A stretch of 64,000 bases of DNA, from positions 64,001-128,000 of the IMG/VR virus record IMGVR_UViG_2617271113_000004; one strand, written 5' to 3'. A model generated the notes under the pieces. It ran no database searches. It saw only the letters and a program-made list of their open reading frames with translations, and was not told the origin of the DNA. This document shows, in pieces, positions 6,377 to 61,004 of the stretch; the first letter of the stretch is position 1, and the number at the start of each line of letters is the position of its first letter. This DNA is from a virus. Its lineage: Duplodnaviria > Caudoviricetes. A program made the translations under genes and the position numbers.

Positions 6377-6382
6377 AACCTC

Positions 6383-13162: not shown

Positions 13163-13177
13163 TAGTCTTCACTTCCT

Positions 13178-16100
13178 CTACAAATAAGCGTCCATGTTAT
13201 AACGAAATTCATCTTCAATTTCCTTTGATCGGTCTTGTTGATAATTAATTCGTGTATGTGTTTCATTACCATTACTTGGCTTTACAATAACTTGTACATT
13301 ATGAAGGCCTTGCCCTTGTAACACATCTCTTAAATTCTTTTCAACACTTTGATAACCAAGAAACTCGGGTTCATTGTAATCATTTGGAAGATCTGGAGTT
13401 AACGCTGCAGCTTCAATATCATCATTCCAATAATTGAAATCTGTTAAATCAATTCCCTCTTCCATTACAGTTTTTACCTTAATATCATCTAAACTATACT
13501 CCGGAGACCAACCTTCCCAATCTGCGTCTGGTATTGCATATTTATTAGCATAGTAAGAAAGAGGTTTCTTCTCTTCTGCTTCCATTCCCCATATTGTTTT
13601 ATAAATTCTTCTTTGGTTTTCAGGAACCAGTTCTAATATCTTTTTCCTATCCGCTGCATTTGCATCAACAAATTCATTAAAGAACCATTTATCTTTATAA
13701 GGAAGTGACTGCATTACCTTCATTCGGTCTTCGTGAGGATCAATTCCATAAAGCGTTGTATCTCGTTGTTCTTTATAATATAACGCTTGAGCAACAGGTG
13801 TAGGTAGTTGAATTTCATCCCATTGTTCTTCTATCTTCTTTAACTCAATATTTATCTTTTTCTTTTTTTCTTCCCAATTCCTAGGTTGCTCGATATACAG
13901 CTGCTTCTTTTGTTCTTCTAGTTCTCGTCTAGCTTCCTTTGTACGTTGTTCTTTTTCTTCAACATTTCTCAAAAATTCATCAGCGTCATAACCCAAATGA
14001 TCTAGCTCTTCTTTTGCCTTTTCATATAGACCTGCATATTTCATGTATTTCAAGATATCGAAATACTCATTTATGTCCTGTTCAGTTCTTCTTCTTTCTG
14101 GTATCCATCGCTCATCATTTCTATATTGATATAACTTTGCAAAGGCATTAGCGGTTAAACCAGTTATACCACCAATAATAGCTCCGGCCTTTGTTCTATT
14201 TCCCCCACCTAGAAAAATACGACCTACTACTCCACCAAACATCGCTCCACTTAAACCTGCAAGCAGTGGGTTGTCTTTACCAGCCATCTTATGAATTGCA
14301 GGTATCCCATAATCAGTAATACCAAAGTTTTCCCATGTAGACCAATCTTGACCATAAATCTGATCTCTTTCATATTCTTCTAATGCTGTTCTAACTTGTA
14401 AGAATTTCGTATTAAGCGCAGAATCAAAATGAGCAATACTTTCCCACCTTGAACCTTTTGCTATTTCTTCCGGGGAAAATCTAGCCCATACTCCAGGTGA
14501 TGAAAAATCAGATTCTAATTCTTTCATTTGTCCAGCATCAATGATTTGTTTATTTAGACTGTTAATGCCTTGAAAGACTACTGCTCGCATTGTTCCATAC
14601 GTATCACTAGAAATTCGCTTATTTTCATCTGCGTCAATACCAATAGTTATTCTATCACCTACATCAATGTACTCCTCAAGCACTCCTTCTGCATTAGCTC
14701 TAGAGTCCACACCTGCTAAACGAATTGGTTGATCCCCGTATTCTTCTGTTAAAAATGTGTAGTCATCTAAAAAGCGTGTAACTGTCACTTTCTCTTTTTC
14801 AAGCTCAGCGTCTTTATAGAGATATTCTTGAAACTCATATTTTTGTTTTCTTCTAGATACTTGTCTTTTTATTTGGGCTGCTTGCTTTCTCAACTGATCA
14901 TCTTCAACGTACTCTGTTACGTAGTCTTTCCAAAATTTATATTCATCTGACCAAGGAGCAACATCAGCAAGAATCTTAAACTTATCAAAAGCACCATAAG
15001 TTCCTGTTTCATCTGGATGCAATCGATTTAGTTTTTCATATGCTTCTCCTGGTAATCTATACTCTCCATGCGGTATAAGACTATATGGATCACCTGTTTG
15101 AAAGTTAATAAAATAGTTCCCACCTGGCAACCAATCAGGCATTGTATTTGGAATAGGATTATACTTATCTAATTGACCACTATCTCTACGAATAAATCGC
15201 CTACCAATTTCTGATAAGCTACCACCTAGCGAACCAAGTTCTGATTCCCAAAAAGCATCAGAAGCATTATAAGCCTCGTCTGATTTGGCAACTACTGTTT
15301 TTCCTACATATGGATCTCTCCCTAATATTTCATCCATGAAGATCCAGTTATAAACACCATGTGGCTCTAACCAGTTACTAGCAAGCTCTTGTCCCCTCCA
15401 TTCAAAGCTTCTAGGGTCTTGTAGTTCATTAATTTTATTTTTATCTACTTGTTGTTGATATTCATATGAAGGAGCAAACATGCCTCTAGGTTCTGTCTCA
15501 ACGCTTCTTTGATCATTTTGTTCTGCAGCAATAAATGCACTATTTAAATCTACATATTTATCATTTAACCGTCGAGGTAGATAAATTGTTTTGCCTGTTG
15601 TAGGATCACCAATGATCATATCTCCTGTAGGATCACTGTCTTCATCATATCGCCTTCTTGCAATGTAATAAGATGAACGTGCGCCATAATCTTCTGGTGA
15701 AGCATCAACATTATATTCAATTCGACCTGAAGGGGATATCCGTGTTGTAACAGGTTCAACTGGTCTTTCTCCTAATAAATCGAATTCCTCTTGTACTACT
15801 TCAGGATCTCCCCAATATTCTTTGTGCATTTCTCTTGTTGGTTTAATTAATTGTCCTATTGTCATATTTCCGATATCACCTAGAAAAGGTGTATTACTAT
15901 TAAATAAATCACCTGTTAACATATATGGTCGATCATAATAATGCTTTTTCTCCCACCAGTAAGGATCTCTTGTACCTATGAGAAATGATAATGCACCTAA
16001 TGGATTTTCAAATGTAGGAAACAGGGAATGTGCGTATTTTTCTTCCGCACTTGAAGTTACTTCAGAATACTCCCAATCGCTATGCGCTTTACGATAACTA

Positions 16101-20264: not shown

Positions 20265-20278
20265 TGTAATGCATTACA
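20265..20278. promoter_or_regulatory. Palindromic operator-like site TGTAATGCATTACA, copy 1
   Basis: Perfect 14-bp intergenic palindrome just downstream of a minus-strand TATAAT; recurs at 52386 and 53938. Confidence 0.65.
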
Positions 20279-44604: not shown

Positions 44605-46365
44605 CTAAAACGTAGATCGCTTAAATCCTTTACTTCTACTAGATCCTCTTGCTCCAAATGATGATTTCGTTCTTTTCTTTGAATATCCCATAGGCACTTT
44701 TTCCATATACCAGTTTGGATTATCCTTAGGCTCTGGAATGCGTTTCTTTTTTGTTTGGAATACATCATCATTTCTTCCGAACGCTTTCTCACGGAGACGA
44801 TCTGAATTGCCATGCTCTTTAACAAAAGCCTTTCTTGCTGGATTTATTTTCTCTAAAATTTTTGCGATATCAGGAAACTCAATGGTAAATCCAAGTATAG
44901 TTAACATAAATGCATCTAATGCATGCTCATTTTCAGATGTATATTCAGGTTTACCTGTTTTTGAAATACGTAATACTTGATAATCCATCATTTGCTTCCA
45001 GACCATATCATCAAAAGGAGAAAGGATTATTTGATCCCTTTCAAGCAATATGCTAGTTTGATTAACCATAAAGTTCTTTGCATCTTTTTTGTCTATCTCT
45101 CTGGACCCTGGATCACGTATTTCAATCTTCTCTGAAAAGTGAATTCGTTTTACTTTTTGCAACATACCGCTTTCTGGGTTATCTCTACCATGTTTTCTAA
45201 GTGCCTCTATTTGATATTCACCGTGACCGGCATCGATATAAAAGAATTTTGGATTCCAAATTGTGTTTATCTCGATTAGTTTTTGTACTGCATTGTCGTA
45301 TGTCCATTCTCCTCTGGTTATTTCATAACGTTTTGCTACTCTAAATTTTTTCCTTAATTCATCAAATTCCGTTACAATAATTTGAGTCGCTGCACCAAAT
45401 TTATCCCAGTCAGTTCCTACGATACGCACAGCAGGAGGAGCTTGATTTTTCATCGTATATTCCGGCATATACGTTATATCATTTAAATCAATACCACTCT
45501 TTTTATATTGTGCTTTTTCATAAACATTCAGTTCACGATAAGCATATAAAAATTGAGATTTTGCCCTTTCTACGGCAGCTTTATTAAATACTCCAACAGT
45601 TTCTTCACCAAACTCGGCTTCTACTTCGTGAATGTAACCTTGTTCGGTCATGGTAGCACGCATTTCCGCTTCCATGGTTTCATCAAAGTCAGGGTTTACC
45701 ATAGAAGGAAAATGATAAGCTTTATAACCTGTGTCCGGATTCGTACATACATCGTAAAAAAAGTCACGCTTACCAGTAGGTGTGGAAGATACCCATATAC
45801 CAATTCGCTTTGGATCTTCCATAGCGATAGCTGTAACGGCATCAATACCATCCCTATTCATATAGTCAATCTCATCCATGAATATAAAATCAGCACGCTG
45901 ACCACGTACACTAGCGCCGCTTTGTCCTTGTGTAGCTCCAACTGTAAAACCCATGATTTTTGAACCATTATTGAAAGATGTAATAAAAGGATTTTTCGTT
46001 GAACTAGAAGAATTAGCAAGTTCATCACAATCATTTATTAACTCTTGCAAACGCATAAATATTAAACGGACTTGATGTTCATAAGGAGTAGTAATTAAAA
46101 GTCGTGCATTTTTATGATGAAAGGCGTACCATAAACAGAATACAACCATTGTTTCTGTTTTACCTACACGTCTTCCCATACGAGCTGCAATTCTCCGAGT
46201 GCCATTCATGATATCTTTGATCATGTCTTCTTGATACCATCTGGCTTTCCATGGATTTCCTTTAGGATCTTTTAATTTCCAATAAGCCCACTTCACAGGA
46301 TCGGAGCGAATCTCTCTTTCTACTTCCTGCATTTCTTCTTTATCTAAAATAGCTTCCTCACTCAT
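44605..46365 (-). CDS. terL: Terminase large subunit
   Basis: Walker A MGRRVGKT, Walker B FIFMDE, SSTP coupling motif, nuclease residues GTDW and EHALDA. Confidence 0.93.
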   Translation of the reverse strand: MSEEAILDKEEMQEVEREIRSDPVKWAYWKLKDPKGNPWKARWYQEDMIKDIMNGTRRIAARMGRRVGKTETMVVFCLWYAFHHKNARLLITTPYEHQVRLIFMRLQELINDCDELANSSSSTKNPFITSFNNGSKIMGFTVGATQGQSGASVRGQRADFIFMDEIDYMNRDGIDAVTAIAMEDPKRIGIWVSSTPTGKRDFFYDVCTNPDTGYKAYHFPSMVNPDFDETMEAEMRATMTEQGYIHEVEAEFGEETVGVFNKAAVERAKSQFLYAYRELNVYEKAQYKKSGIDLNDITYMPEYTMKNQAPPAVRIVGTDWDKFGAATQIIVTEFDELRKKFRVAKRYEITRGEWTYDNAVQKLIEINTIWNPKFFYIDAGHGEYQIEALRKHGRDNPESGMLQKVKRIHFSEKIEIRDPGSREIDKKDAKNFMVNQTSILLERDQIILSPFDDMVWKQMMDYQVLRISKTGKPEYTSENEHALDAFMLTILGFTIEFPDIAKILEKINPARKAFVKEHGNSDRLREKAFGRNDDVFQTKKKRIPEPKDNPNWYMEKVPMGYSKKRTKSSFGARGSSRSKGFKRSTF

Positions 46366-49068: not shown

Positions 49069-50215
49069 GCGGTTGCATCTCCTTCACAGGACTTACATAC
49101 TCCTCTAATACTTTCTCTTGACCAAGCTCATCTGATAACTCAAGAACACCATACATATAAAATCCTAGAAGGTTCGTAAATTGGGAATTTTCCATTATAA
49201 TAAATCCTTGGATATTTTCTTTTTCAAAGTTCTTGCCAACTTCCTTTGCGTAGACATGAGCCCCCCCACCAGTGGCAATAATCAATTGTAACCGGTTAGA
49301 CTCATTTCCCCATGCTGTTGTAATTGAATCAGCAATAGGTTTAGCTCGATCAGCAATAACAGCTTGAATTTCATCTGATACATCAAAGTCAGTATTTCTA
49401 TATTTAATATTTCCAGTCTGAATCGCATAGTCTAAATCCTGATCTGACGGGTGGAACATATAACCCATATCAGCGAATTTTAATTCGATAGATCTGCGAA
49501 GACGCTTATATACTTCTGTTACTCCAATTGTTGATTTATTTTTTGTGTCATCTTCTAGTACAACCCCATTACGGAATAAAGCATAATCCGTAGATACATG
49601 TCCGAAGTCAATGACTCCTAAATATTCTGCACGATGTTCAGACGGTGCTAAGAAGCTTTCTTCATCAAAGCGAAATTGATTGTATGTAACGGTACCTTCT
49701 GGTTGTCTTAACACAACTACGCTTTTGACTTTCACGTCTTTTTTAATGCTATTTTTACTGTCTAAATAGAACTCTACGGTAAAGTCTTTACTTAAGAATG
49801 ATTCTAAGTCTTCTTTAATCTTCATGTCGTAATCTGTATTCGGAAGCCCCGTAACAATAGTAACTTCATATGTTCCACTTTTATCAGGAAGGCTTAACCC
49901 AATTCCTGTATGGAAAAGAACCCTACTCTTTTCATCATTGGCACGATTACGTTTTTCAGTACGCACGTTTACATTTTCTTCTACTGGCATACCTAAAGCA
50001 TTATCTCCAACGAAATATGTTCCTTCTTCCGTTTTCACCACTAATTCTTGTATGTTTATTTCACTAGAGGATAGCAATGGACGGCTTGCTGGTGTCCCAC
50101 TAACTACGCCACTTGGTATTACATGTGGCTCTGGCTTTGCATTTGACATATACTTTAAACCACCAAAACCTACGTCTACCCCTACTAAATATGGCACCTT
50201 CTTCTCTTTCGTCAT
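49052..50215 (-). CDS. parM: ParM/Alp actin-like partition ATPase
   Basis: Actin-fold motifs VGVDVGFGGLK, VTGLP, QPEG, VIDFGHVSTD, TGGGA. Confidence 0.9.
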   Translation of the reverse strand: MTKEKKVPYLVGVDVGFGGLKYMSNAKPEPHVIPSGVVSGTPASRPLLSSSEINIQELVVKTEEGTYFVGDNALGMPVEENVNVRTEKRNRANDEKSRVLFHTGIGLSLPDKSGTYEVTIVTGLPNTDYDMKIKEDLESFLSKDFTVEFYLDSKNSIKKDVKVKSVVVLRQPEGTVTYNQFRFDEESFLAPSEHRAEYLGVIDFGHVSTDYALFRNGVVLEDDTKNKSTIGVTEVYKRLRRSIELKFADMGYMFHPSDQDLDYAIQTGNIKYRNTDFDVSDEIQAVIADRAKPIADSITTAWGNESNRLQLIIATGGGAHVYAKEVGKNFEKENIQGFIIMENSQFTNLLGFYMYGVLELSDELGQEKVLEEYVSPVKEMQPHVARQ

Positions 50216-50237
50216 TCCCTATTTCTCCCTCCAGTAT

Positions 50238-50271
50238 AATATGTTTAAATTGTTAACATTTTGAACATATT
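50238..50271. promoter_or_regulatory. 34-bp imperfect palindrome, candidate parC/operator
   Basis: AATATGTTTAAATTGTTAACATTTTGAACATATT between promoter and parM RBS. Confidence 0.6.
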
Positions 50272-50274
50272 CCT

Positions 50275-50303
50275 AGTTTACCTATAAATGCTGATAGATG
50301 CAA
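50275..50303 (-). promoter_or_regulatory. SigA-type promoter of the partition operon
   Basis: TTGCAT-17 bp-TAAACT. Confidence 0.55.
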
Positions 50304-50314
50304 GTATTACCAAT

Positions 50315-50344
50315 AAAAAAGCACCGCTTTTTGCGATGCTTTCT
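50315..50344 (-). terminator. Probable terminator ending the tRNA cluster transcript
   Basis: AAAGCATCGC-AAAAA-GCGGTGCTTTTTT on the minus strand. Confidence 0.55.
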
Positions 50345-50577
50345 TTAGGAAAAGGAAGGATAATGGAATTTTAGAGCTTGCAGCTCTTTTAAAGAGCCTA
50401 GGAAAACAGGGAAACCCAAGCTCCTTAAAACAACTGCAAATCGATATGGACAGGAACTAAAGAGACATCAAATATTAATATTAACGATATATGAGATAAA
50501 ATGAAAGGAGTGTAATATGAATGAAAGATAGTCTCTTTAGCCCTATTCCTATATCAAGGCAAAGGGGGTAATAGTTG

Positions 50578-50641
50578 TGTTCTTGACTGGACTCTCACCA
50601 GTATCTCTTGTGACAAGCGCATTAACTTATACTACAAGAAC
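50578..50641 (-). ncRNA. tRNA-like RNA with a truncated anticodon arm
   Basis: Acceptor GTTCTTG/CAAGAAC, D arm GTAT/ATGC, T arm ACTGG-TGAGAGT-CCAGT; anticodon arm only CTTG-TCA-CAAG. Confidence 0.6.
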
Positions 50642-50648
50642 ATATAAG

Positions 50649-50726
50649 CGCCCTCTTGGGAGTTGAACCCACCCACAACAGCATATGGCCATCTATCTGT
50701 TGACTCATCCACCGAAAGGAAAGGGC
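50649..50726 (-). ncRNA. tRNA-like RNA with an enlarged anticodon loop
   Basis: Acceptor GCCCTTT/AGAGGGC, T arm GGG-TTCAACT-CCC, stem CAACAG/CTGTTG closing 15 nt. Confidence 0.55.
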
Positions 50727-50732
50727 ATATAA

Positions 50733-50807
50733 TCTCGATAGCAGGACTTGAACCTACGACCTCTGCGTCCCAAACGCAGCGCTCTACGCAAACTGAGCTA
50801 TATCGAG
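50733..50807 (-). tRNA. tRNA-Pro (TGG)
   Basis: Full cloverleaf; anticodon arm CTGCG-TTTGGGA-CGCAG; T loop TTCAAGT. Confidence 0.93.
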
Positions 50808-50817
50808 TTGTATCCTT

Positions 50818-50964
50818 GCAGTTGTAAACCACTCTAACAACTGCTCTGTATTCATGTTTAGCACTAACTCTTGTCAGGTGATACGCCTTAGCTAAATGTA
50901 AAATACATTTTTTTGCTCAATTTTATTCTTGCCTGTATCAGAAGGCTGAGCCGTGGAGTTGTTA
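50818..50964 (-). ncRNA. Candidate structured ncRNA with complementary hairpin loops
   Basis: Closing stem 50835-42/50957-64; two inner arms whose loops (TGATAC and GTATCA) are complementary; strand inferred from the cluster. Confidence 0.45.
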
Positions 50965-50972
50965 TAAAATAG

Positions 50973-51066
50973 TGACCTTCATAGGAATTGAACCTATATC
51001 CACCTCTTGCTAAGCAATAAACCAGTCATCACCTAGTAAGTGTAGTAGAATTCTCCAGTAAGATCA
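50973..51066 (-). ncRNA. tRNA-like RNA with an expanded central domain
   Basis: Acceptor TGATCTT/AAGGTCA, perfect T arm ATAGG-TTCAATT-CCTAT, no canonical anticodon arm. Confidence 0.5.
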
Positions 51067-51100
51067 TTATGTATACGGGTCAAGATTAATTGACCCGATT

Positions 51101-51505
51101 TTATAAAGCAGGCAATGGATGAAGAGTCATACTTTCGTCAGTAACCCATCCTCCTGCAGCAGGATCATCAAAATAATGATAAATATATTGTCCAACTGCT
51201 TTTTGATTAACATCTGGTAGAAGAAAACCCACATTAACTACTCTTTTATTTTCCTCATCTGTTATTACTTCTTCATGAATTAGCTCTGCGTCCATTATAG
51301 TGAAAGGTTCTCCTGTTCCAGGATAGTTCATAAAGTTATCAACGAACCGTGGTCCATGGTTAGGATACATTTCATCTGGTGGATAAAACTGTATTCTTGT
51401 GTTTTGAGTAGGTTCTACAGCAAAATGTAATATTTCTGTAAATACACCATTTTTTCCACCTGCATAGTTACACATATACACTGCTTCTGGTTCTGTGAAA
51501 TCCAT
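51101..51505 (-). CDS. Hypothetical protein inside the tRNA cluster
   Basis: 134 aa, RBS AGGAG, followed by hairpin 51076-51097. Confidence 0.65.
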   Translation of the reverse strand: MDFTEPEAVYMCNYAGGKNGVFTEILHFAVEPTQNTRIQFYPPDEMYPNHGPRFVDNFMNYPGTGEPFTIMDAELIHEEVITDEENKRVVNVGFLLPDVNQKAVGQYIYHYFDDPAAGGWVTDESMTLHPLPAL

Positions 51506-51536
51506 ACCATCAGCTCCTATATTTTATTAGTTGACA

Positions 51537-51606
51537 TTCCCTGTTGGAGTTGCACCTTACCATCTACAGTTAACTCACTATAGACTGACTACTAACTAGT
51601 AGGGAA
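51537..51606 (-). ncRNA. Degenerate tRNA-like RNA
   Basis: Acceptor TTCCCT/AGGGAA, T-like GG-TGCAACT-CC, long stem TCTATAG/CTGTAGA; 4 nt from the tRNA-Asn CCA. Confidence 0.4.
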
Positions 51607-51610
51607 CATA

Positions 51611-51685
51611 TGGCTGAGTAGGTAGGATTCGAACCTACGACTAACCGGTTAACAGCCGATTGCTCTACCGCTGAGCTACTACTCA
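51611..51685 (-). tRNA. tRNA-Asn (GTT) with encoded CCA
   Basis: Full cloverleaf; ATCGG-CTGTTAA-CCGGT; GGTTCGAATCC. Confidence 0.95.
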
Positions 51686-51764
51686 ATATTGCAAATGCTC
51701 TAATGAAGAACATTTGCCTTTAAAAAGAGAAGAATAAATATGCTTCTAACAAACCCTTAAATAG

Positions 51765-51793
51765 ATAATACTACAAAATGTAATGTCTTTCAA
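51765..51793 (-). promoter_or_regulatory. SigA-type promoter of the tRNA cluster
   Basis: TTGAAA-17 bp-TATTAT; spacer contains the half-site CATTACA. Confidence 0.65.
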
Positions 51794-51852
51794 TATATTT
51801 ATTATAATATTTTAAACTTTTTTTATATTCAGTTTTTAATCTAGACATCTTG

Positions 51853-52395
51853 TTATTCTCTTTTTATATTCATCTGTAGATTTGCATTATTGATGAAAGC
51901 TTGATAATCGTTCTCTACCCTTCCTCCAACTACATATATTGGTCCTTCAGACTTATGGAGAATTTCACGAGACAGCTTAAGTATTTTCCTGAAATAACTA
52001 TTATCAATAAACTCTATATCTTCCATAATAACTGCATCTGCAGATAGTCCTGCAACCAGATGGCTATCACCATTAACACCAAAAAAGGTAATCCGTTTTC
52101 CATTATCTAAACATAGCGTGTTTGAATTAGAATAAATAACATTAACTCCCTGCTCTTCGAAAACGTCTTTATAGACCCTTGTATTCAAGGTTACAGTGCC
52201 TCCTATCAATACTACATGGTTCCATTCGGATTTGTTTATTTTTTTGGCAATATTATAGGATTTTCCACTTCCTCTGTCAGCAGTAACAGCTAATGTTTTA
52301 CAGTTAGCTTCTTGAAATAAGTCCCATTTATCTTTTTTCTTAAATAGTCTTTTAAATATTTTTTTCATAATTAATTCTCCTTTTTTGTAATGCAT
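51853..52395 (-). CDS. Stand-alone terminase-ATPase-like P-loop protein (start probably 52368)
   Basis: ADRGSGKS Walker A; LDNGKRITFFG; GLSADAVIMED Walker B-like. Confidence 0.55.
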   Translation of the reverse strand: MHYKKGELIMKKIFKRLFKKKDKWDLFQEANCKTLAVTADRGSGKSYNIAKKINKSEWNHVVLIGGTVTLNTRVYKDVFEEQGVNVIYSNSNTLCLDNGKRITFFGVNGDSHLVAGLSADAVIMEDIEFIDNSYFRKILKLSREILHKSEGPIYVVGGRVENDYQAFINNANLQMNIKRE

Positions 52396-52398
52396 TAC
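52386..52398. promoter_or_regulatory. Palindromic operator-like site, copy 2
   Basis: TGTAATGCATTAC upstream of the RBS of the P-loop gene. Confidence 0.6.
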
Positions 52399-52440
52399 TT
52401 TATTAAGGCAAAGATACTTTCAGTACAAATAACACTCCTT

Positions 52441-53334: not shown

Positions 53335-53700
53335 TTATTTCTCCCCTTTTTTAATTCTTTTTTTCCATAGATATTTCGGGGATAGCATAACCCCTTCTTC
53401 TATTTTCACTTTATTTTTTCTTTGAAGATACCTAGCTAGAGTAAGTAGAACAGTGTGATAGTTATATTTTAGTTTTTGATGTATATCATAGAAGATCTTC
53501 AATAAATTAACTGGTCCTGAAGCTATTAGTAATTCACCTCTAATGTAATCATCGTGCCATACTTTAAAGTCACTTCTATTCTCACATTCCCACCAATACT
53601 CAACAGATATTCTTGTTGGCCACCAAGTTCGTTTATTTTTTATTTTTTTATATTCCTGTGATTCGTACTTGTACTCAGATAACTGTAATCTCTTCACCAT
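53335..53700 (-). CDS. Hypothetical protein
   Basis: RBS GGGGGAG; 121 aa. Confidence 0.55.
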   Translation of the reverse strand: MVKRLQLSEYKYESQEYKKIKNKRTWWPTRISVEYWWECENRSDFKVWHDDYIRGELLIASGPVNLLKIFYDIHQKLKYNYHTVLLTLARYLQRKNKVKIEEGVMLSPKYLWKKRIKKGEK

Positions 53701-53713
53701 TTCTCCCCCTTTA

Positions 53714-53896
53714 CTATTTGTAAATCTTACTACGATCTATTGGCACTATTTTAGAATAGCCATAACCTAAATCGATTATCTCTGAATTGTTCCTCAAGTC
53801 TACAGAACCATTTTCTACTAAGCGTTCATGCAGTGTTTTCTGTTCTGTTTTCTTTCTTCTGATGTATGTAGGCTTCTTCCCGTTTTCCATATACAA
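53714..53896 (-). CDS. Hypothetical protein
   Basis: RBS AGGAGG; 58-60 aa. Confidence 0.55.
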   Translation of the reverse strand: MYMENGKKPTYIRRKKTEQKTLHERLVENGSVDLRNNSEIIDLGYGYSKIVPIDRSKIYK

Positions 53897-53937
53897 ATCC
53901 TCCTTTTTATTTTCATTTATTCTTATTTAGACCTAAG

Positions 53938-53951
53938 TGTAATGCATTACA
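53938..53951. promoter_or_regulatory. Palindromic operator-like site, copy 3
   Basis: Perfect TGTAATGCATTACA just downstream of minus-strand GTGACT-17-TAAACT. Confidence 0.65.
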
Positions 53952-54040
53952 AATAGTTTATCTTACTCTGAATTTAAAGTCACTACCTAAACCTGGGGAA
54001 AAACCCTTATAGGGGAAAATTTCTAAAAAAAATTGCTCGG

Positions 54041-54067
54041 GGTACTACCTTTTATATAGGGAGTTTT
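54041..54067 (+). promoter_or_regulatory. Candidate phage-RNAP promoter motif GGYACTAC-N4-TATATAGGG, copy 1
   Basis: At the strand switch upstream of the first plus-strand ORF; 22/27 match to an inverted copy at 60346-60372. Confidence 0.45.
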
Positions 54068-54122
54068 CCAGGGCGTTTGTAGCCCCCACCCCTAACAAAC
54101 TATTAGAAAAGGATGATGAACA

Positions 54123-54302
54123 ATGCAAACAGTATCATTAGTAAACTTATTCAACCAATTAAAAGGATCAGGCAAATGTATCCGATTCGGTGACTTAATG
54201 AAAAGAGGATTTAATGCTGATCTAATCAAGGTAGCTGTAGAGAGATGTGAGATCGAACTAGGATTAGATGGAGAAGGATACACCATTGTTGTATTTAACT
54301 AA
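54123..54302 (+). CDS. Small hypothetical protein (59 aa, MQTVSLVNLF...)
   Basis: RBS AAAGGA; open frame read manually, absent from the ORF track. Confidence 0.6.
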   Translation: MQTVSLVNLFNQLKGSGKCIRFGDLMKRGFNADLIKVAVERCEIELGLDGEGYTIVVFN

Positions 54303-54305
54303 TGA

Positions 54306-54374
54306 ATCGAAACACCTTTCAAGAAAGGAAGGTGTATGCAGGACATGACCACCCTGTACTGATGAGATAGGTCA
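54306..54374 (+). ncRNA. Hammerhead ribozyme, type II with pseudoknot
   Basis: ATC-GAAA-CACCTTT..GAAGGTG-TA^TGCAGG..CCTGTA-CTGATGA-GAT; loop I TGACC pairs with 3' GGTCA. Confidence 0.85.
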
Positions 54375-54424
54375 CACTATTGTCCAGCTCATGACATGAA
54401 ACCGAGCATTAGAAAGGAGTCAAT

Positions 54425-54910
54425 ATGACTACAACGAGCATGAATAAGGATGCACTAACTACTGTACTAGCAGGTGCAAAGGAAGGAGTCAATAAGATAA
54501 AGAAGTCAAAACGATTTGAATCCATAGTTGAGAAAGCAGGTGTTGCATTAGGTAAAGCATACCGTGCAACAGAAGCTTTTATTAAAGGACATTGGAAGAA
54601 TGCTGCGCTTGCCACAGCTACAACAGTAGGTGCTGGTGCGATAACCACTGGGCTAGGCAGTGCGTTATGCGCAGGCGCCTTACTATATGGTGGCATAAAG
54701 ACACTAGCCTACTACCTAAGCCATAAACAGGTGCGATTCAAAGATGCAACTATCAATTTGTTTATTGAAAGTAGTATTGGATTCGTATATGGCATGGGCT
54801 TACTACTTGCTTATCTAATAGGTGGCACATTGCTAATCACGCTATCTGCTGAATTGGGACATTTCCTAGCTGCTAACTGGATGTATGTGCTGTATCTACT
54901 AGTAGGTTAA
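54425..54910 (+). CDS. Multi-pass membrane protein
   Basis: RBS AAAGGAG; 3-4 hydrophobic helices. Confidence 0.7.
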   Translation: MTTTSMNKDALTTVLAGAKEGVNKIKKSKRFESIVEKAGVALGKAYRATEAFIKGHWKNAALATATTVGAGAITTGLGSALCAGALLYGGIKTLAYYLSHKQVRFKDATINLFIESSIGFVYGMGLLLAYLIGGTLLITLSAELGHFLAANWMYVLYLLVG

Positions 54911-55143
54911 TAGCCTTGTAGTGTACCTCTGCCCCTCTCTATAGCGACACATCACATAGCTACTATAGAGTGTATGAACAGCTAGGTGATCGATAGGTGT
55001 TGTACATGCCCTGCTCTATCGTCAAAGAGATAATCATGTGCCTGTAGTGATTCCTGTAGAGTAACCGCTCGTCATTACAGAAGCTTTATATGTAATACCA
55101 ATCAATTAGATTTAAAACAAATTAATCATTGGAGGAATTTAAA

Positions 55144-55251
55144 ATGAAAAACTTATTAATCAAATTCGTACAACAGGACGCTACAGATAAGAAGATTCAA
55201 CTTGTATTCGTTGGAATGTTAGCTTTTCTATTCTTTGCACTAACACACTAA
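55144..55251 (+). CDS. 35-aa single-TM peptide
   Basis: RBS GGAGG; MKNLLIKFVQQDATDKKIQLVFVGMLAFLFFALTH. Confidence 0.55.
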   Translation: MKNLLIKFVQQDATDKKIQLVFVGMLAFLFFALTH

Positions 55252-55273
55252 AAAACAATTGGAGGAATGAACG

Positions 55274-55477
55274 ATGGACGTAACTTACAAACAATTAATT
55301 CTCGAAGGAAAATATCTTGGCTACTGTGGTCATATGGGATACCTGTATTCCATCTTTGTTAGATATGACGAGAAGGAACAGGAAGTATATCAAATCTATG
55401 GTGTTCATGGAAATGCGTTACATTTTCTTATTGAATATCCAATACTACGAAAGGAGCATGATGTAGATGAACTATAA
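55274..55477 (+). CDS. Hypothetical protein
   Basis: RBS GGAGG. Confidence 0.6.
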   Translation: MDVTYKQLILEGKYLGYCGHMGYLYSIFVRYDEKEQEVYQIYGVHGNALHFLIEYPILRKEHDVDEL

Positions 55478-55850
55478 TATGCCAACTGGAAGATATGTTG
55501 AATTATACGTCAAAGAAATCTTCAAAGAACTGTTTGAAACAACTTATGTTGAAGCAACAAAAGAAGATGATCTATATCGAGGGACAGACTTCTTCATTGG
55601 GTCTGTTCCTATTGATGTAACCATTAATGAAAGTAAAGATCACTGCAAGTTAATTAAGAAGTATTTATTGGATGGCGTTACAGTCTCCGTGTCCAAACGT
55701 AACCGTAACGCCAGGGTAACATTCGAAAGACCAGTATTAGTCTTTCATTTTGATCTGTACGATTTGCGAGATCGTATGCAGATCTGTGAGTTAATCGATG
55801 AATCACTCACACAAGACATTATAACAGAAATCTTAGGCCTTTATAAATAA
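55467..55850 (+). CDS. Hypothetical protein, possible PD-(D/E)xK-like fold
   Basis: E...D...GTDFFI..IDVT pattern; RBS AAGGAG. Confidence 0.5.
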   Translation: MNYNMPTGRYVELYVKEIFKELFETTYVEATKEDDLYRGTDFFIGSVPIDVTINESKDHCKLIKKYLLDGVTVSVSKRNRNARVTFERPVLVFHFDLYDLRDRMQICELIDESLTQDIITEILGLYK

Positions 55851-55869
55851 GGCTAACCACAAAGGAGAA

Positions 55870-58800
55870 ATGATTACTATGAAAAATCAAACTGCGACTG
55901 TATCAAATCAATCTAACCAAACTAAAGGAGATGTTATTAAAATGGAAAATCGTACAATGTTAAAAGAAAATGGTTATCTATACACTGTTCAGGACATTCT
56001 TGCTGCCCTATCTAAATCAGAAGGTTTCAAATCACGTGATTCAAAGAACTTTGCTCGTGTACTAAGAGCAATGTCAGAAGGAAAGGCATTACTTGATATC
56101 TTAGCTAATCCGTCACTAGCAGGAGTACCGAATAATCAAGTTCGGTACTTTACTGAGTTTGTAGAAAACAACAAACTAGCAAAACGTGTATATAAACCAA
56201 CACGTAAAGGTGTACTTGTTCCAATTGCTGATATTAATCTAATGGAAATGCAAGAAGATAAAGTATACTCAACAATTGATTATTCTGAAGTAAATGTAGA
56301 CTCTTATAAAGAGATTAGTGAATCGTTCTTGAGTGAAACACTAGCTTCTACACCAGAGATGATTGAGTTTACTCGTAATGGAAAACTTATTAAACAACGC
56401 ATGATGCTTCCTATGCGTCATGTCTTCTTCGTGAGCTTAGGCTTGGAGCTCCCTGAAGAAGAAGCGGACTATGATCAGGAAGACTTTGATAATATTCATC
56501 TTCGTGAACGAGTAATGAAAGATGGATTTTATTTTACAGACGAAAATGGTGAAGAAGGACATGCTTACTTCTTCTTACGCACTCCATCTCAAGCACGTGT
56601 GTTACAAGCAGTCTTTATTGATACAGCTTTCATGTCCCCTGTTCAAGCGTTAAAACTATTAGGTCATGAATTAATTGCTTATGGCTCTCAAGATAATGAA
56701 GGCAATTATGTTGTTAAAGTAGACAAAATGATTACTCGTCCAGGTCTAGCTGGTACAAATACTGTTGCTTCTAAGACAGTTGATATTGGAAATATCGTGG
56801 AGATTAATCATAAAGGTGAACAACGCTTAGTTGGTGGTGTGCATACCCTACGTGTTGTAGAAGATAGACAAGTTGAAATTAAAACAGGTACGTATCGTGC
56901 TTGGGACAAAGAGAAACAATGCTTTAAAGAGTTTGATGCAAATGAGCATCCGATCTCACTAACAGCAGCAGATGGTGCGATCTTCTGTGATGAAGAGATT
57001 TATCATACACTTGGTGCAGAGTTCGGTCAATTTAACGATGCATGGCAAATTCGCATTACTCCATTTGTTAAAGGTCTTATGGTGTTCGTGCCAAATCTAC
57101 GTGCTTACTATGATGATCATATTATTGCATTTAAGTCTGCTGTTAAAGGTGACTTTGCTAATCTAATTACAGCTAATCCTGACTTCAAACCACAACTACG
57201 TATTGCTATGTTTAACCGTAATCTTAATCAAGAAAAGACGTATACGGATATGCCTTATCAATTTGTACAAGCTTCTTCACTAAACACAAGTGACCTATGG
57301 AAAGTTATGAAACCACACTTAGAAAAAGTAGGCAATGCATTACACGATCCAAGTATCATGAAGAAATATGTAGGGCTAGATAAAGTCATTGATGCTGATC
57401 TATTCGATCAGGAAACAGAACACTACATGATTGATCAGTCTCGAGTATCAACGTTTACTTCGTTCTTAGATATGTTTGATTGGACTTATGAAGATGTGCA
57501 TATGAAACGCTATGCATTAGATGTGCTCAAAGAAAAGATTGCTGATTGGAAAACCGGCAATGTGCCTGTAGAAGGACATTATCGCTATTTAATGCAAGAT
57601 CCATATGCTGTACTAGAAGCTGGTACAAAGTATACCGTTCGCAATGAAAATGGAGATCTAATGATAACAAATCGTGGATCTTATCACATTCAACCAAACG
57701 AAGCATTTGTCCCATCTGCTCATGAACATAAATCAAATGTCTATGTAGCAGCTGGACGTAACCCAATGATTGCAAAAGGTGAGTGGCAAGTGGTCCGTCA
57801 TCGCCCTATCGATATGTATAACCGTGCTTATAAGAAAGGTGCTTTCCGTAACATTACACTTATGAGTGTGCATGACATGAGACTATTTGCTATGGGTGGA
57901 GCTGACGTTGATGGAGATACTGCACTAACTGTAACAGATGAAACAATTGTACAAGCATTAAAGCGTAAAGAAACTTCTCCAGTAATGGATATCTCTTTTG
58001 TTGAGAAAGATGGCAATATCGAATTCTTAGGAGATGGTGTTCCTTATTCAAAAGAAATGACTGGTGTATATCGTATGCCAGAACACTTAGTAGACAAGCA
58101 AAATAATTACAAGATCACATTTACAAAAGAACAAAATACAGATGAACTCTATGAAGAGGTTCATAAGCTAGGTGTTGATTATGTCATACGTACATTAAAG
58201 CCAAACAAAATTGGTATTGCTACTAACATTGCATCTATCTTGGCAGATGCTGTTCGTGGCTTAGGCTATGACTTATATTTGAATAATGTATCTCAAGATC
58301 AAGTAATGACTACGATTAAACAGTATGAGAACTGGATTGACATCCTACGCTTAGTACAAGGTTGGGAAATTGATGCAGCTAAACATGGTGGTGCCTATCA
58401 AGAAGTCATGAAAGAAACATTAGACTTTATGGATAACCCACCTGAATCATTATCATATCTACACAAAGGTCTTGGTCGTCGTGTATGGAATAAGCCTAAT
58501 TGGTTAGCAGCACGTGTTGGAAAGAAAGGTCATGATCTGGGGTCTGTGTTGTCACGTCTTATGGATCTTGTTCAACAATTCGAAGACAATATGTTAACGA
58601 ATGAATTGGAAAGAATGCATCTAGAAGCAGATAGCTTTTCTCTGTTAGCTAAACTAAACAGTGCATTCCAATTAGATCCTGCTTACTTTAATGAGCTTGC
58701 TAATCATGTAAAACAATTAAAAGCTTCTTATGGTTCAGCTGTTCGTAAGACACATCAAGCAGCTCAAGATAAGAAGCAAGTTATTATTGAATCAAATACA

Positions 58801-59376
58801 CCTGATCATATACGTGATCTCCAATTTGAAGAAATTGAAGTGAAGTTAAACAACTATATTGGAGACATCGCAGATATGGCTCGTGATAAGATTGCAGAGC
58901 TTATGAGTATGTATCCAGCTAAAGATATTGGATATGTATCTTACTATGTAACATATGTAGATCGTAAGAAAGAAGCATCTCTCTCTTTCCCATGGACTGT
59001 AGCACGTGAAGCATTTATTCAGACACTTTCTTATGTGGAGAATAAAGAGAAGCAAGATCAACTTACTGCGAATGAAGTTGTAGACAATAATATTACACTT
59101 GCTGTATGTATTCCTGATGCGATTCAAGAGCAGTTTACAATGGAGAAAGTATTAGAAGGATTGCATAAGCAACCATCATTCATTCAAGCTGTAGGTGATA
59201 AGTATAGACTAATCATTGGTCAAACTGAAGTAGGCTTTGTATTTAATTCAGCTAAGAATATTAAGTCACTTCTAGGTCATGATAAGTATGAACTTAATAT
59301 CAGTACGTCTACACCTGGCCGTGGAACACGTACAGTTAACCTAGAAGTGAATGAACTAATCAAGATAGGAGCCTAA
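55870..59376 (+). CDS. YonO-like single-subunit DNA-dependent RNA polymerase (cellular RdRP-related)
   Basis: RTPSQAR, DGAIF, WQIRITPFVKG, GRNP, MGGADVDGD, KIGIATN, EIDAAKHG. Confidence 0.88.
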   Translation: MITMKNQTATVSNQSNQTKGDVIKMENRTMLKENGYLYTVQDILAALSKSEGFKSRDSKNFARVLRAMSEGKALLDILANPSLAGVPNNQVRYFTEFVENNKLAKRVYKPTRKGVLVPIADINLMEMQEDKVYSTIDYSEVNVDSYKEISESFLSETLASTPEMIEFTRNGKLIKQRMMLPMRHVFFVSLGLELPEEEADYDQEDFDNIHLRERVMKDGFYFTDENGEEGHAYFFLRTPSQARVLQAVFIDTAFMSPVQALKLLGHELIAYGSQDNEGNYVVKVDKMITRPGLAGTNTVASKTVDIGNIVEINHKGEQRLVGGVHTLRVVEDRQVEIKTGTYRAWDKEKQCFKEFDANEHPISLTAADGAIFCDEEIYHTLGAEFGQFNDAWQIRITPFVKGLMVFVPNLRAYYDDHIIAFKSAVKGDFANLITANPDFKPQLRIAMFNRNLNQEKTYTDMPYQFVQASSLNTSDLWKVMKPHLEKVGNALHDPSIMKKYVGLDKVIDADLFDQETEHYMIDQSRVSTFTSFLDMFDWTYEDVHMKRYALDVLKEKIADWKTGNVPVEGHYRYLMQDPYAVLEAGTKYTVRNENGDLMITNRGSYHIQPNEAFVPSAHEHKSNVYVAAGRNPMIAKGEWQVVRHRPIDMYNRAYKKGAFRNITLMSVHDMRLFAMGGADVDGDTALTVTDETIVQALKRKETSPVMDISFVEKDGNIEFLGDGVPYSKEMTGVYRMPEHLVDKQNNYKITFTKEQNTDELYEEVHKLGVDYVIRTLKPNKIGIATNIASILADAVRGLGYDLYLNNVSQDQVMTTIKQYENWIDILRLVQGWEIDAAKHGGAYQEVMKETLDFMDNPPESLSYLHKGLGRRVWNKPNWLAARVGKKGHDLGSVLSRLMDLVQQFEDNMLTNELERMHLEADSFSLLAKLNSAFQLDPAYFNELANHVKQLKASYGSAVRKTHQAAQDKKQVIIESNTPDHIRDLQFEEIEVKLNNYIGDIADMARDKIAELMSMYPAKDIGYVSYYVTYVDRKKEASLSFPWTVAREAFIQTLSYVENKEKQDQLTANEVVDNNITLAVCIPDAIQEQFTMEKVLEGLHKQPSFIQAVGDKYRLIIGQTEVGFVFNSAKNIKSLLGHDKYELNISTSTPGRGTRTVNLEVNELIKIGA

Positions 59377-60345
59377 CGCCTACAAGCTCCTATGCTGTTA
59401 GTATAGCATATCTAAAGTAGTACGACCATTGTTCGTGTATGGAGTCCAACATTGCTAGTTCCTCTTAGGACTAACTAGGATGTTGGTCTTCTATATACGA
59501 ATGTTATCTTATATTGCAAGGATAATGTTCGGATATAGAAGAAATCCTTCGGATAGGTGTATCAGCATAGCAATGCTCCCCTCTCCTCCCTACCGTTGCA
59601 TAGCGACACTGCCTTCGGCACAGCAGACCACCTCCGCCCGCTCCTTCTATTTGCCAGTTAAGCTTGCTAGCGCCCACTCTCACAGCACGTTCACCGACTA
59701 CACTAGTAGTATGCGGGTTATGTTTCAGCACAGCTCACTTGTCCACTATTTGTCAGCCTGTCGGCTAGCTCATTGAGTTATAGCCCCCACTATAGCTCGC
59801 TCACGCTTTCCTATTGCCCACTAATGGGTAAACCCTCGGTAACTCTGCATTCTATCTGCACGGCTCTCATTTTGCCTCCTAGAGGGCGGGGTGGGAGCAT
59901 TGCCGAGGGAAAAGTGTGTGTGCAGATGTAGCAAGCGTACCGATATAGATAGCTCTGCCGAAGAAGAAAGCTCAGCGTAGCTCTGCTTATCTATAGTCTA
60001 CATACTGCAACTATAAGCTTATTAGCTAGCTCATCCTCTGCTGTATATTTCTGTTCATACCAACATAGTAAGCGTACTGTATCTTTTAGTAGCCTATCCT
60101 CTCTGCCCCCTATTTATGTGAGCATAACCCCCCATTGTATCCGATCTTTTCGTTTGCGCTACTTATAAAAGTGCAGAGCTTCCCCACGGCCGACAACTAC
60201 ATAAGAGCTGCGGTACTAGCTTTCTTTATTGTTGGCTTTACTGTTTATTTTGTATGCTTATTGTAGTAGTATGACTGTATCAGTTAGCTTTACTTTTACT
60301 AAGTAAGACTTACTGTTTATTTGATGAACTCTTTCTTTTATCTTC
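59377..60345. other. About 1 kb non-coding, locally GC-rich, densely base-paired region (candidate ncRNA or origin)
   Basis: Many hairpins and long-range complements; no ORF with an RBS. Confidence 0.5.
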
Positions 60346-60372
60346 AAAACCCCCTATATAGTATGTAGTGCC
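60346..60372 (-). promoter_or_regulatory. Candidate phage-RNAP promoter motif, inverted copy 2
   Basis: Minus strand GGCACTAC-ATAC-TATATAGGGGGTTTT. Confidence 0.45.
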
Positions 60373-60607
60373 TTTCATAAGTAAGTAATGCTTAAGAAAA
60401 ACCCTCTCATATATTATTAACACCTGAAAAACCTTAGGAAATGCTACACTTCGATATAATTGTCACAAATTGTTCACATTATGTTCGTAATATATCGAGG
60501 TGAAAATGCGAACAAAGAGGTATCTTTATACTGACTTTATGTTATGATAGGTATTACATTGCCTGTCGGCAAGTTAGGTAGATATCACGTAATAGGGGTG
60601 CAAGAAA

Positions 60608-60796
60608 ATGACAGAGAGAGATTTATTAAAGTTTCAGTACCGTCTGGGATACTACGAAGAATTACTACAGAAGAAGTATACTACCTTTGCTCATATAGAG
60701 AAGCTAGATCGTTTGGAAAGAAAGATAGATGAATGGTATTTTTATTCTACAGAGTTATATGAAGAACAAGAAGAACTACAGGAATGTGTAGGTTAA
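60608..60796 (+). CDS. Small acidic helical protein
   Basis: RBS AGGGGTG; followed by hairpin AGAGGGAG/TTCCCTCT. Confidence 0.55.
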   Translation: MTERDLLKFQYRLGYYEELLQKKYTTFAHIEKLDRLERKIDEWYFYSTELYEEQEELQECVG

Positions 60797-60857
60797 ACTT
60801 CTATAGAGGGAGGTATACTCTTCCCTCTCTGTTATCTTACTAAGGAGGAAGTATGTC

Positions 60858-61004
60858 ATGCATCTATTAGAGAAACTCGATCTAGCTATAAGTAATTGTG
60901 TTTCAGGAGAGTCTGTATCGGTGGAATTTACATATGATGAACTACAGACAATACGTAAGATGGTAGTACTGTCTGCTTATGAAGATAGATTATCTAATGA
61001 TTAA
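60858..61004 (+). CDS. 48-aa hypothetical protein
   Basis: RBS AAGGAGG; MHLLEKLDLAI... Confidence 0.5.
   Translation: MHLLEKLDLAISNCVSGESVSVEFTYDELQTIRKMVVLSAYEDRLSND

Follow-up and report, generated by a model that had tools for sequence, protein, structure and literature searches.

We examined two inverted 27-bp motifs that lie on either side of a YonO-like RNA polymerase gene in a 64,000-nucleotide stretch of phage DNA (hereafter the window), bases 64001-128000 of the 191,052-bp provirus record IMGVR_UViG_2617271113_000004. Coordinates are those of the window unless the record is named. Motif 1 (plus strand) reads GGTACTACCTTTTATATAGGGAGTTTT and motif 2 (minus strand) reads GGCACTACATACTATATAGGGGGTTTT. 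An earlier note, made from the letters alone, had placed the two at 54041-54067 and 60346-60372, matching at 22 of 27 positions and facing each other across about 6.3 kb, and the sequence, the positions, and the spacing (6,278 nucleotides between the arms) all agree with that description. It had further suggested that the motifs act as convergent promoters for a phage polymerase, as the ends of an invertible or mobile segment, or as a replication or packaging signal. Our preferred reading, to which we give roughly an even chance, is that the two 27-mers form no functional pair: motif 1 would be part of a control region at the junction of the two gene arms, probably carrying a promoter and leader, and motif 2 would be a look-alike.

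On a crude gene map, genes run on the minus strand from position 1 to about 117,700 of the record and on the plus strand from about 118,425 to 189,932, giving a left arm of minus-strand structural genes and a right arm of plus-strand genes headed by the polymerase operon. Motif 1 lies inside the region where the coding strand switches (53897-54122), within a block of about 100 bp that reads, in order, AAACCTGGGGAAA, the palindrome CCCTTATAGGGG (54004-54015), a T-run and an A-run, AAAAAAATTGC (54026-54036), GGTA (54041-54044), CGTT (54074-54077), and CCCCACCCC (54084-54092). Seven genomes were compared across this junction: the window; its closest relative, L014, a 194,705-bp contig of Oceanobacillus profundus DSM 18246 (hereafter the O. 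profundus element) whose polymerase is 69-70% identical; and five further viral or metagenome contigs with polymerases 33-37% identical (L016, L017, L018, L019, and L023). In all seven, the DNA upstream of the first plus-strand gene carries AAAC-T-GGAAA, the palindrome CCCTATA(TA)GGG, a T-run, AAAAAAATTGC, four variable bases, and GGTA, followed 36-42 bases later by CGTT and GCCCC(C)ACCCC; neither the order of these elements nor their orientation relative to the polymerase gene changes. Across relatives whose polymerases share 33-70% identity with that of the window, AAAAAAATTGC, GGTA, CGTT, and GCCCC(C)ACCCC are invariant. Each genome has the block once, with no second copy in the record, and a scan of 2.9 million viral contigs in IMG/VR for AAAAAAATTGC-N4-GGTA-N36-42-CCCCACCCC returned only six contigs, all already known. 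This pattern indicates that the block is a deeply conserved, single-copy control region that includes motif 1.

No sigma-70-type promoter was predicted on the plus strand of 53700-60800; all 13 predictions in that interval fell on the minus strand, against a shuffle mean of 25.5. What lies 14-17 bp after TTGCTC in the block is limited to TATATA, TATAGG, or ATAGGG, which does not amount to a SigA −35/−10 pair at 16-18 bp spacing, and among the relatives the distance from TTGCTC to the TAT-G element, read from the alignment, varies from 13 to 17. Because a conserved block heads the plus arm and no sigma-70-type promoter is predicted there, motif 1 plausibly lies within a promoter and leader, and its region is most likely a non-sigma-70-type promoter together with the 5′ leader of the right arm. 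Single-sequence folds of the plus strand predict two nested helices, an outer one in which TAGGG of motif 1 pairs with CCCTA just past CCCCACCCC, and an inner hairpin whose loop contains CGTT. Minimum-energy folds of four of the seven genomes contain the outer helix, and L016 retains it as ATGG/CCAT in place of AGGG/CCCT. Folding z scores on the plus strand ranged from −0.88 to −2.65 in the seven genomes (mean about −1.6), and RNAalifold on a MAFFT alignment of the leaders gave no consensus structure (three trivial pairs).

From these features we can postulate how the region might work. The upstream conserved part (A-run, TTGC, and GGTA) would be the recognition region of a right-arm promoter that is not of the sigma-70 type. 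The right-arm transcript would have its first base at, or slightly ahead of, the GGG of TATAGGG, at about 54052-54059, and would open with a 5′-terminal stem-loop, TAGGG pairing with CCCTA around the inner hairpin, before the gene at 54123. As for the palindrome CCCTTATAGGGG, which lies 47 bp upstream, its probable role is in the leftward arm or as a binding site for a regulator. Candidate readers of the region are the YonO-like enzyme of the phage, or the host core enzyme with a phage sigma factor.

At the other end of the operon, motif 2 points leftwards into noncoding DNA. The earlier note would have counted a lack of further copies and of conservation in related phages against its proposal, and both were observed for the pair. 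The DNA around motif 2 (site 2) was aligned with two close relatives, the O. profundus element and L022, a 4.5-kb metagenome contig whose polymerase is 74% identical; past the polymerase gene, AAAACCCCCTATATAGTATGTAGTGCC of the window stands opposite unrelated sequence in both. In the O. profundus contig, its own motif-1 27-mer occurs only once even when up to seven mismatches are allowed, and the junction of that contig shows no significant similarity to its own site 2 on either strand. No third copy of the motif is present in the 191,052-bp record (20-nucleotide core, up to two mismatches). Motif 2 reads GGCA where GGTA is invariant, and it has neither the upstream A-run/TTGC block nor a C-rich downstream partner. 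Downstream of it on the minus strand, no open reading frame of at least 50 amino acids occurs before 59932, and none of the smaller ones is convincing. The RNA that a start at motif 2 would yield is no more structured than expected (z +0.61), and a weak terminator-like hairpin lies about 170 nucleotides past the motif (60187-60173, minus strand). Unlike the motif itself, element C (about 25 bp outside it) is retained in both close relatives. Between site 2 and the next plus-strand genes there is also an imperfect 27+27-bp palindrome (60447-60502) holding TGTCACAAATTGTTCAC, which is identical in the O. profundus element; the region resembles an operator region.

We then asked how unusual the match between the motifs is. 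Inverted pairs of 27-mers with at least 22 matches and more than 200 bp apart number 19 in the window, against 14, 11, 8, and 8 in four dinucleotide shuffles. The intergenic DNA of the whole record (11,584 bp) holds nine inverted and eight direct pairs, of which eight and seven, respectively, belong to one unrelated 14-bp palindrome family. Outside that family, only the pair of motifs 1 and 2 and one direct pair beyond the window are left. The latter, matching at 23 of 27 positions at 130516 and 130815 of the record (66516 and 66815 in window coordinates), is the sole other non-palindrome repeat pair in the intergenic DNA of the record. Thirty shuffles of the intergenic DNA gave a mean of 0.53 inverted pairs, with at least one pair in nine of them. 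An expectation of zero for this particular pair is circular and post hoc, because the search pattern was derived from the pair itself. By these counts the 22/27 match of the pair is not, by itself, shown to be more than chance. The five differences fall mostly in the upstream part, TATATAGGGRGTTTT is common to both motifs, both are intergenic, and at 27 bp they are the longest inverted pair within 53700-60800. Local alignment of the two intergenic stretches scored 34, compared with 19.2 ± 2.8 for shuffles. The alignment spans exactly 27 bp, with residual similarity in neither flank, and this confinement argues against a larger duplication.

Several observations weigh against our preferred reading. 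The alignment score of the two intergenic stretches was reached by none of 300 shuffles, and motif 2 resembles motif 1 over both of its halves, the lineage-specific ACTAC (GTAG in most relatives) included, an appearance to be expected of a recent functional copy. Within motif 1, the first half, GGTACTAC, overlaps the invariant GGTA and has GGTAGTAGG in its place in most relatives, but the TATAGGG half is the least conserved part of the block. At the aligned spot, TATAGGG is present in two of the seven genomes (the window and L019); the O. profundus element has ATAGGG, L016 TTATGGA, L017 TATGCG, L018 TATAGCG, and L023 nothing similar. The helix signal is equally strong on the minus strand (mean z about −1.4), so that the helix could be an inverted repeat in the DNA and not an RNA leader. 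The block, single-copy and at the minimum of cumulative GC skew that falls on the strand switch, could be an origin, a packaging site, or an operator cluster; the skew minimum is explained equally well by gene orientation. Finally, TATAGGG boxes in four distant relatives, described below, suggest that TATAGGG may be a true initiator in this family, which would favor a function for motif 2. With these points counted, we still prefer to read motif 1 as part of the junction control region and motif 2 as a lineage-restricted look-alike, which would be either a fortuitous match or at most a weak or minor antisense promoter. Of the convergent phage-polymerase promoters proposed earlier, the one at motif 1 stays plausible, given the conserved block and the lack of a sigma-70-type prediction, and the pair as a promoter unit is not supported, since motif 2 is unconserved, the closest relative has no second copy, and no further copies occur in the record.

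Table 1. Features of the polymerase operon and its borders, in window coordinates
Feature	Position	Strand	Description
14-bp palindrome TGTAATGCATTACA	53938-53951		Perfect; between the junction block and the first minus-arm gene; one of a multi-copy family
Junction control block	53989-54092		About 100 bp, single-copy, between the diverging gene arms; kept in 7/7 genomes
Motif 1	54041-54067	+	First half on the invariant GGTA; TATAGGG is the 5′ arm of a predicted helix
Predicted nested helices	54057-54094	+	Outer 54057-54064/54088-54094; inner hairpin 54071-54074/54082-54085
First plus-arm gene	54123-54302	+	59 amino acids, no family match; start codon 56 nucleotides past motif 1
Hammerhead type II-like sequence	54305-54376	+	29.3 bits, gathering score 37, E 0.0076 (below the Rfam threshold)
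YonO-like polymerase gene	55870-59376	+	1,168 amino acids, PF05183 (RdRP), E 1.7e-8
Noncoding structured region	59377-60170	+	z −5.2, 0/20 shuffles; minus strand z −0.85
Motif 2	60346-60372	−	Putative lineage-specific look-alike, pointing leftwards into noncoding DNA
Element C	60396-60424		GAAAAACCCTCTCATATATTATTAACACC on the plus strand, about 25 bp outside motif 2; kept in both close relatives

Both motifs could instead be promoters of the YonO-like polymerase of the phage, with TATAGGG as the initiator and motif 1 driving the polymerase operon and the right arm, which we regard as unlikely; similarly doubtful is the companion idea that motif 2 drives a short minus-strand antisense or noncoding RNA that converges on the plus-strand transcript and limits or tunes it. 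The phage does encode such a polymerase, both motifs share TATATAGGGRGTTTT in intergenic DNA, the plus-strand operon has no predicted sigma-70-type promoter, and a weak terminator-like hairpin follows motif 2. For YonO of phage SPbeta, the available text of the published study describes very few promoters, with one mapped late-operon start and an undefined promoter sequence (PMC5467207). The relatives add plus-strand TATAGGG(A/G/T)GC boxes 1-3 kb downstream of the polymerase gene in L017 (11389), L018 (13104 and 13123), L019 (12352), and L023 (13199), each followed by a C/T-rich leader of about 60-130 nucleotides and then a plus-strand gene. L017 and L019 have the 24 bases upstream of the box in common, and L019 carries a copy of the 14-bp palindrome between this box and the gene. 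In a complete 228,841-bp relative, all three copies of TATAGGGRG lie at the junction (two) or 1.7 kb past the polymerase gene (one), and the junction palindrome presents TATAGGG towards the left arm in all relatives, where the window has TATAAGGG. However, motif 2 is missing in both close relatives, departs from the invariant GGTA, and lacks the conserved upstream block; the predicted antisense RNA gives no structure signal; and a polymerase operon dependent on its own product requires another way to start. TATAGGGRG is not enriched in the records of four relatives (five matches, six for the reversed control). A flank profile built from 14 TATAGGG boxes of the relatives places motif 1 at the 56th and motif 2 at the 47th percentile of random positions, and hence shows no shared motif beyond the heptamer. 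The O. profundus element has no TATAGGGRG at the junction or at site 2, and a degenerate 15-mer found 22 matches in the O. profundus genome compared with 27 for the control. TATAGGG is intergenic at 5 of its 14 sites in the record, which carries little weight because intergenic DNA is more AT-rich. In its widest form, TATAGGG-type boxes would be starts that YonO-like polymerases themselves recognize, the junction would hold back-to-back promoters reading about 118 kb leftwards and about 73 kb rightwards, and motif 2 would be a recent third promoter, antisense to the polymerase operon and the structured RNA that trails it. We give this only a small chance; if true, it would provide the first promoter sequence for the YonO-like double-barrel polymerase class.

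Another possibility, which we consider improbable, is that one phage DNA-binding protein, such as a repressor, activator, or replication initiator, recognizes the shared sequence, with control by looping or of the handcuffing type seen where iterons lie on both sides of a replication gene. The junction palindrome CCCTATA(TA)GGG in all seven genomes (with TATAGGGG...CCCCTATA in L019), direct repeats of GAAAAACC-type words on the plus strand of site 2 (about 60345, 60396, and 60427), the conserved imperfect palindrome at 60447-60502, the recurrence of related short words at the junction and at site 2, the position of the junction at the GC-skew minimum, and the small genes lacking a family assignment directly after motif 1 would all suit such a site. 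Against it, the motif has just two copies with the second unconserved, no cognate protein was identified, no iteron array was found at the junction, and gene orientation accounts equally for the skew. Much less probable is an RNA stalk like those of rRNA processing, in which the two arms would pair on the plus-strand transcript as a duplex of about 27 bp around the polymerase mRNA and the structured RNA. Both arms would be on one such transcript, begun upstream of motif 1, with only weak in-gene plus-strand terminators predicted between them, and two of the five mismatches become G-U on the plus-strand RNA only, giving 24 of 27 pairs. Yet two G-U-compatible mismatches of five are expected about 20% of the time by our estimate, the relatives offer no co-variation because the partner is missing there, and a start at the GGG would leave only nine nucleotides of motif 1 in the RNA. 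The least credible of the alternatives is that the motifs mark the ends of a mobile element as terminal inverted repeats, or that a 6.3-kb segment inverts by crossover at them, as the earlier note had suggested. Their inverted orientation, as the longest such pair in 53700-60800, is what speaks for it. We rejected it, since the conserved block runs unbroken across the outer edge of motif 1 in all seven genomes, the orientation of the polymerase operon relative to the block is fixed in all seven with gene order collinear in every relative, the five enclosed proteins have no recombinase or transposase domain (Pfam and PHROG), and the outer flanks (...TTGCTCGG and TTTCATAAG...) show no direct repeat and no target-site duplication; the partner repeat is also missing in relatives with the same gene order. 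The third of the earlier suggestions, a replication or packaging signal, is possible for the single-copy junction block at the skew minimum, but nothing links motif 2 to it.

Our preferred reading, that only motif 1 belongs to a conserved control region, leaves the contents of the operon to be described. Between the motifs lie, in order, the 59-amino-acid gene, the hammerhead-like match, three more small genes, the polymerase gene, and about 1.17 kb without convincing open reading frames. The earlier listing of a polymerase gene and a structured region between the motifs was confirmed, and its ribozyme is here reduced to a hammerhead-like sequence that scores below threshold. In a six-frame search, PF05183 matched the polymerase at E 1.2e-10. 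Its metal-binding motif is of the GADNDGD type, with A-D-x-D-G-D invariant among 16 homologues. The hammerhead-like sequence carries the boxes CTGATGAG and CGAAAC; the O. profundus element reads TTGATAAG for the first of these, which makes activity doubtful there. This below-threshold hammerhead was the sole Rfam match when the junction, site 2, and the structured region were searched. The structured region, which gave no Rfam match at E up to 1, contains patches conserved in the O. profundus element and L022; its core (59790-59925) has 18 consensus pairs, three of them compensatory, among only three sequences. It is possibly a new large noncoding RNA.

The polymerase has few relatives in our searches. 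A megablast search of the phage collection with 53500-61000 as query came back empty, and the polymerase was found in 1 of 246 genomes of the bacterial family that contains Oceanobacillus. With the polymerase as query, tblastn returned one weak match, the YonO-type gene of Bacillus phage BUCT082, at 22% identity over 274 residues. The large terminase, encoded on the left arm at 44605-46365, shares 45% identity with the enzyme of Moorella phage MTATph1, 40% with its counterparts in Bacillus phages WH1 and Edson, and 34% with the one in phage 0305phi8-36. Three giant genes stand in a row on the minus strand at 77-18997 (2,099, 2,259, and 1,939 amino acids), only the first with a clear domain (lysozyme-like); sequence searches of the PDB found no match for the polymerase or for two giant neighboring proteins. 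A third tRNA of the window is located at 50578-50641 (minus strand). In the O. profundus element, a GOLLD RNA (205.9 bits, gathering score 150) lies at 999-1443 on the minus strand, in the left arm near tRNA genes, whereas the corresponding tRNA region of the window (49900-52000) gave no match even at E up to 1. On the far left arm, at about 10,000-11,900 of the record and outside the window (locus L054), a divergent 254-amino-acid sigma-70-family protein is encoded in a cluster with a RusA-like resolvase and a RemA-like DNA-binding protein, beside a copy of the 14-bp palindrome. With this protein and the YonO-like polymerase, the phage itself would encode two candidate transcription devices.

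The multi-copy element of this genome is the 14-bp palindrome TGTAATGCATTACA, with seven perfect and five one-mismatch copies in the 191-kb record. Copies in the window other than the one in Table 1 are at 20265-20278 and, with one mismatch, at 52386-52399. On both arms, most copies precede a ribosome-binding site by 4-25 nucleotides, and a TATAAT-like hexamer stands right in front of several. The O. profundus element has four perfect and nine one-mismatch copies, and L016-L019 have perfect copies as well; L023 and phage 0305phi8-36 yielded none, and the palindrome sequence was not found in the literature searched. In this phage family as a whole, the palindrome may act as an operator for a master regulator or as a promoter-proximal element.

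Collectively, the conserved biology here appears to lie in one arm of the pair and its surroundings and not in the bracket that the two form. In AT-rich phage DNA, an inverted match of 22/27 is no more than chance provides, a caution for similar finds. The promoter of YonO-type single-chain polymerases is still undefined in the available text of the SPbeta study (PMC5467207), and this family of two-armed phages of about 190-230 kb provides a compact, conserved, single-copy candidate control region at the head of a polymerase operon.

The resemblance of the TATA-GGG end to promoters of single-subunit phage polymerases, raised in the earlier note, can be set against several known systems. It is literal for the nine bases TATAGGGAG of motif 1, which equal −4 to +5 of the T7 class III promoter consensus, and a G-rich start followed by a 5′ stem-loop is likewise similar to T7-type promoters. 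The resemblance goes no further: the upstream specificity region here does not match, a T7-type system needs many co-oriented copies whereas the motif has only two, one of them antisense to the surrounding genes, and a six-frame search of the 191,052-bp record for a T7-type polymerase (PF00940) gave no matches, although this search was also silent on the control genomes. Short convergent antisense RNAs of the lambda OOP type occur in temperate phages, and an active motif 2 would similarly produce a short RNA that meets a longer transcript at its 3′ end; here, by contrast, there is no conserved terminator, and the promoter-like site is itself unconserved.

Phage 0305phi8-36 offers a closer parallel in genome plan. 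The available text of its description reports separate structural and non-structural arms, a PF05183 polymerase (orf99) in the latter, and a 21-bp motif, present 14 times, as a candidate promoter (Hardies et al. 2007, PMC2147016). The two-arm plan with a PF05183 polymerase in the non-structural arm is common to both phages, as is a repeated, phage-specific noncoding motif put forward as a promoter. They differ in that the 27-mer has 2 copies compared with 14, and the multi-copy element here is the unrelated 14-bp palindrome; that palindrome was ruled out as the 21-bp motif, being absent from 0305phi8-36. A protein search of that phage with the polymerase gave no match at E 0.001 or better.

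The nearest functional comparison is with YonO of SPbeta. In the portions of the literature searched, no definition of the YonO promoter was found; the available text of the YonO study maps one start, ahead of both an unannotated noncoding RNA and yonK, and leaves the promoter sequence open (PMC5467207). As far as that text describes them, the starts are very few, head very long operons, and are not of the sigma-70 type (PMC5467207). In SPbeta-like phage BUCT082, whose polymerase is the weak match noted above, a 1.7-kb gap separates the HU-like gene that follows the YonO-type gene from the YonK-family gene (yonK), and this stretch, 7244-8961 of locus L053, is almost without annotated genes. 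This is the place where the SPbeta paper, in its available text, puts the unannotated noncoding RNA (PMC5467207). A review, in the part available, locates the SPbeta pac site near yonR-yonP, beside yonO (PMC8270828). The layouts differ, since structural genes here diverge from the polymerase operon rather than follow it. As far as the SPbeta text goes, the two systems share a PF05183 double-barrel phage polymerase (Forrest et al. 2017, PMC5467207) and a large noncoding stretch adjoining its gene, and the structured region described here recalls the unannotated RNA beside SPbeta yonO.

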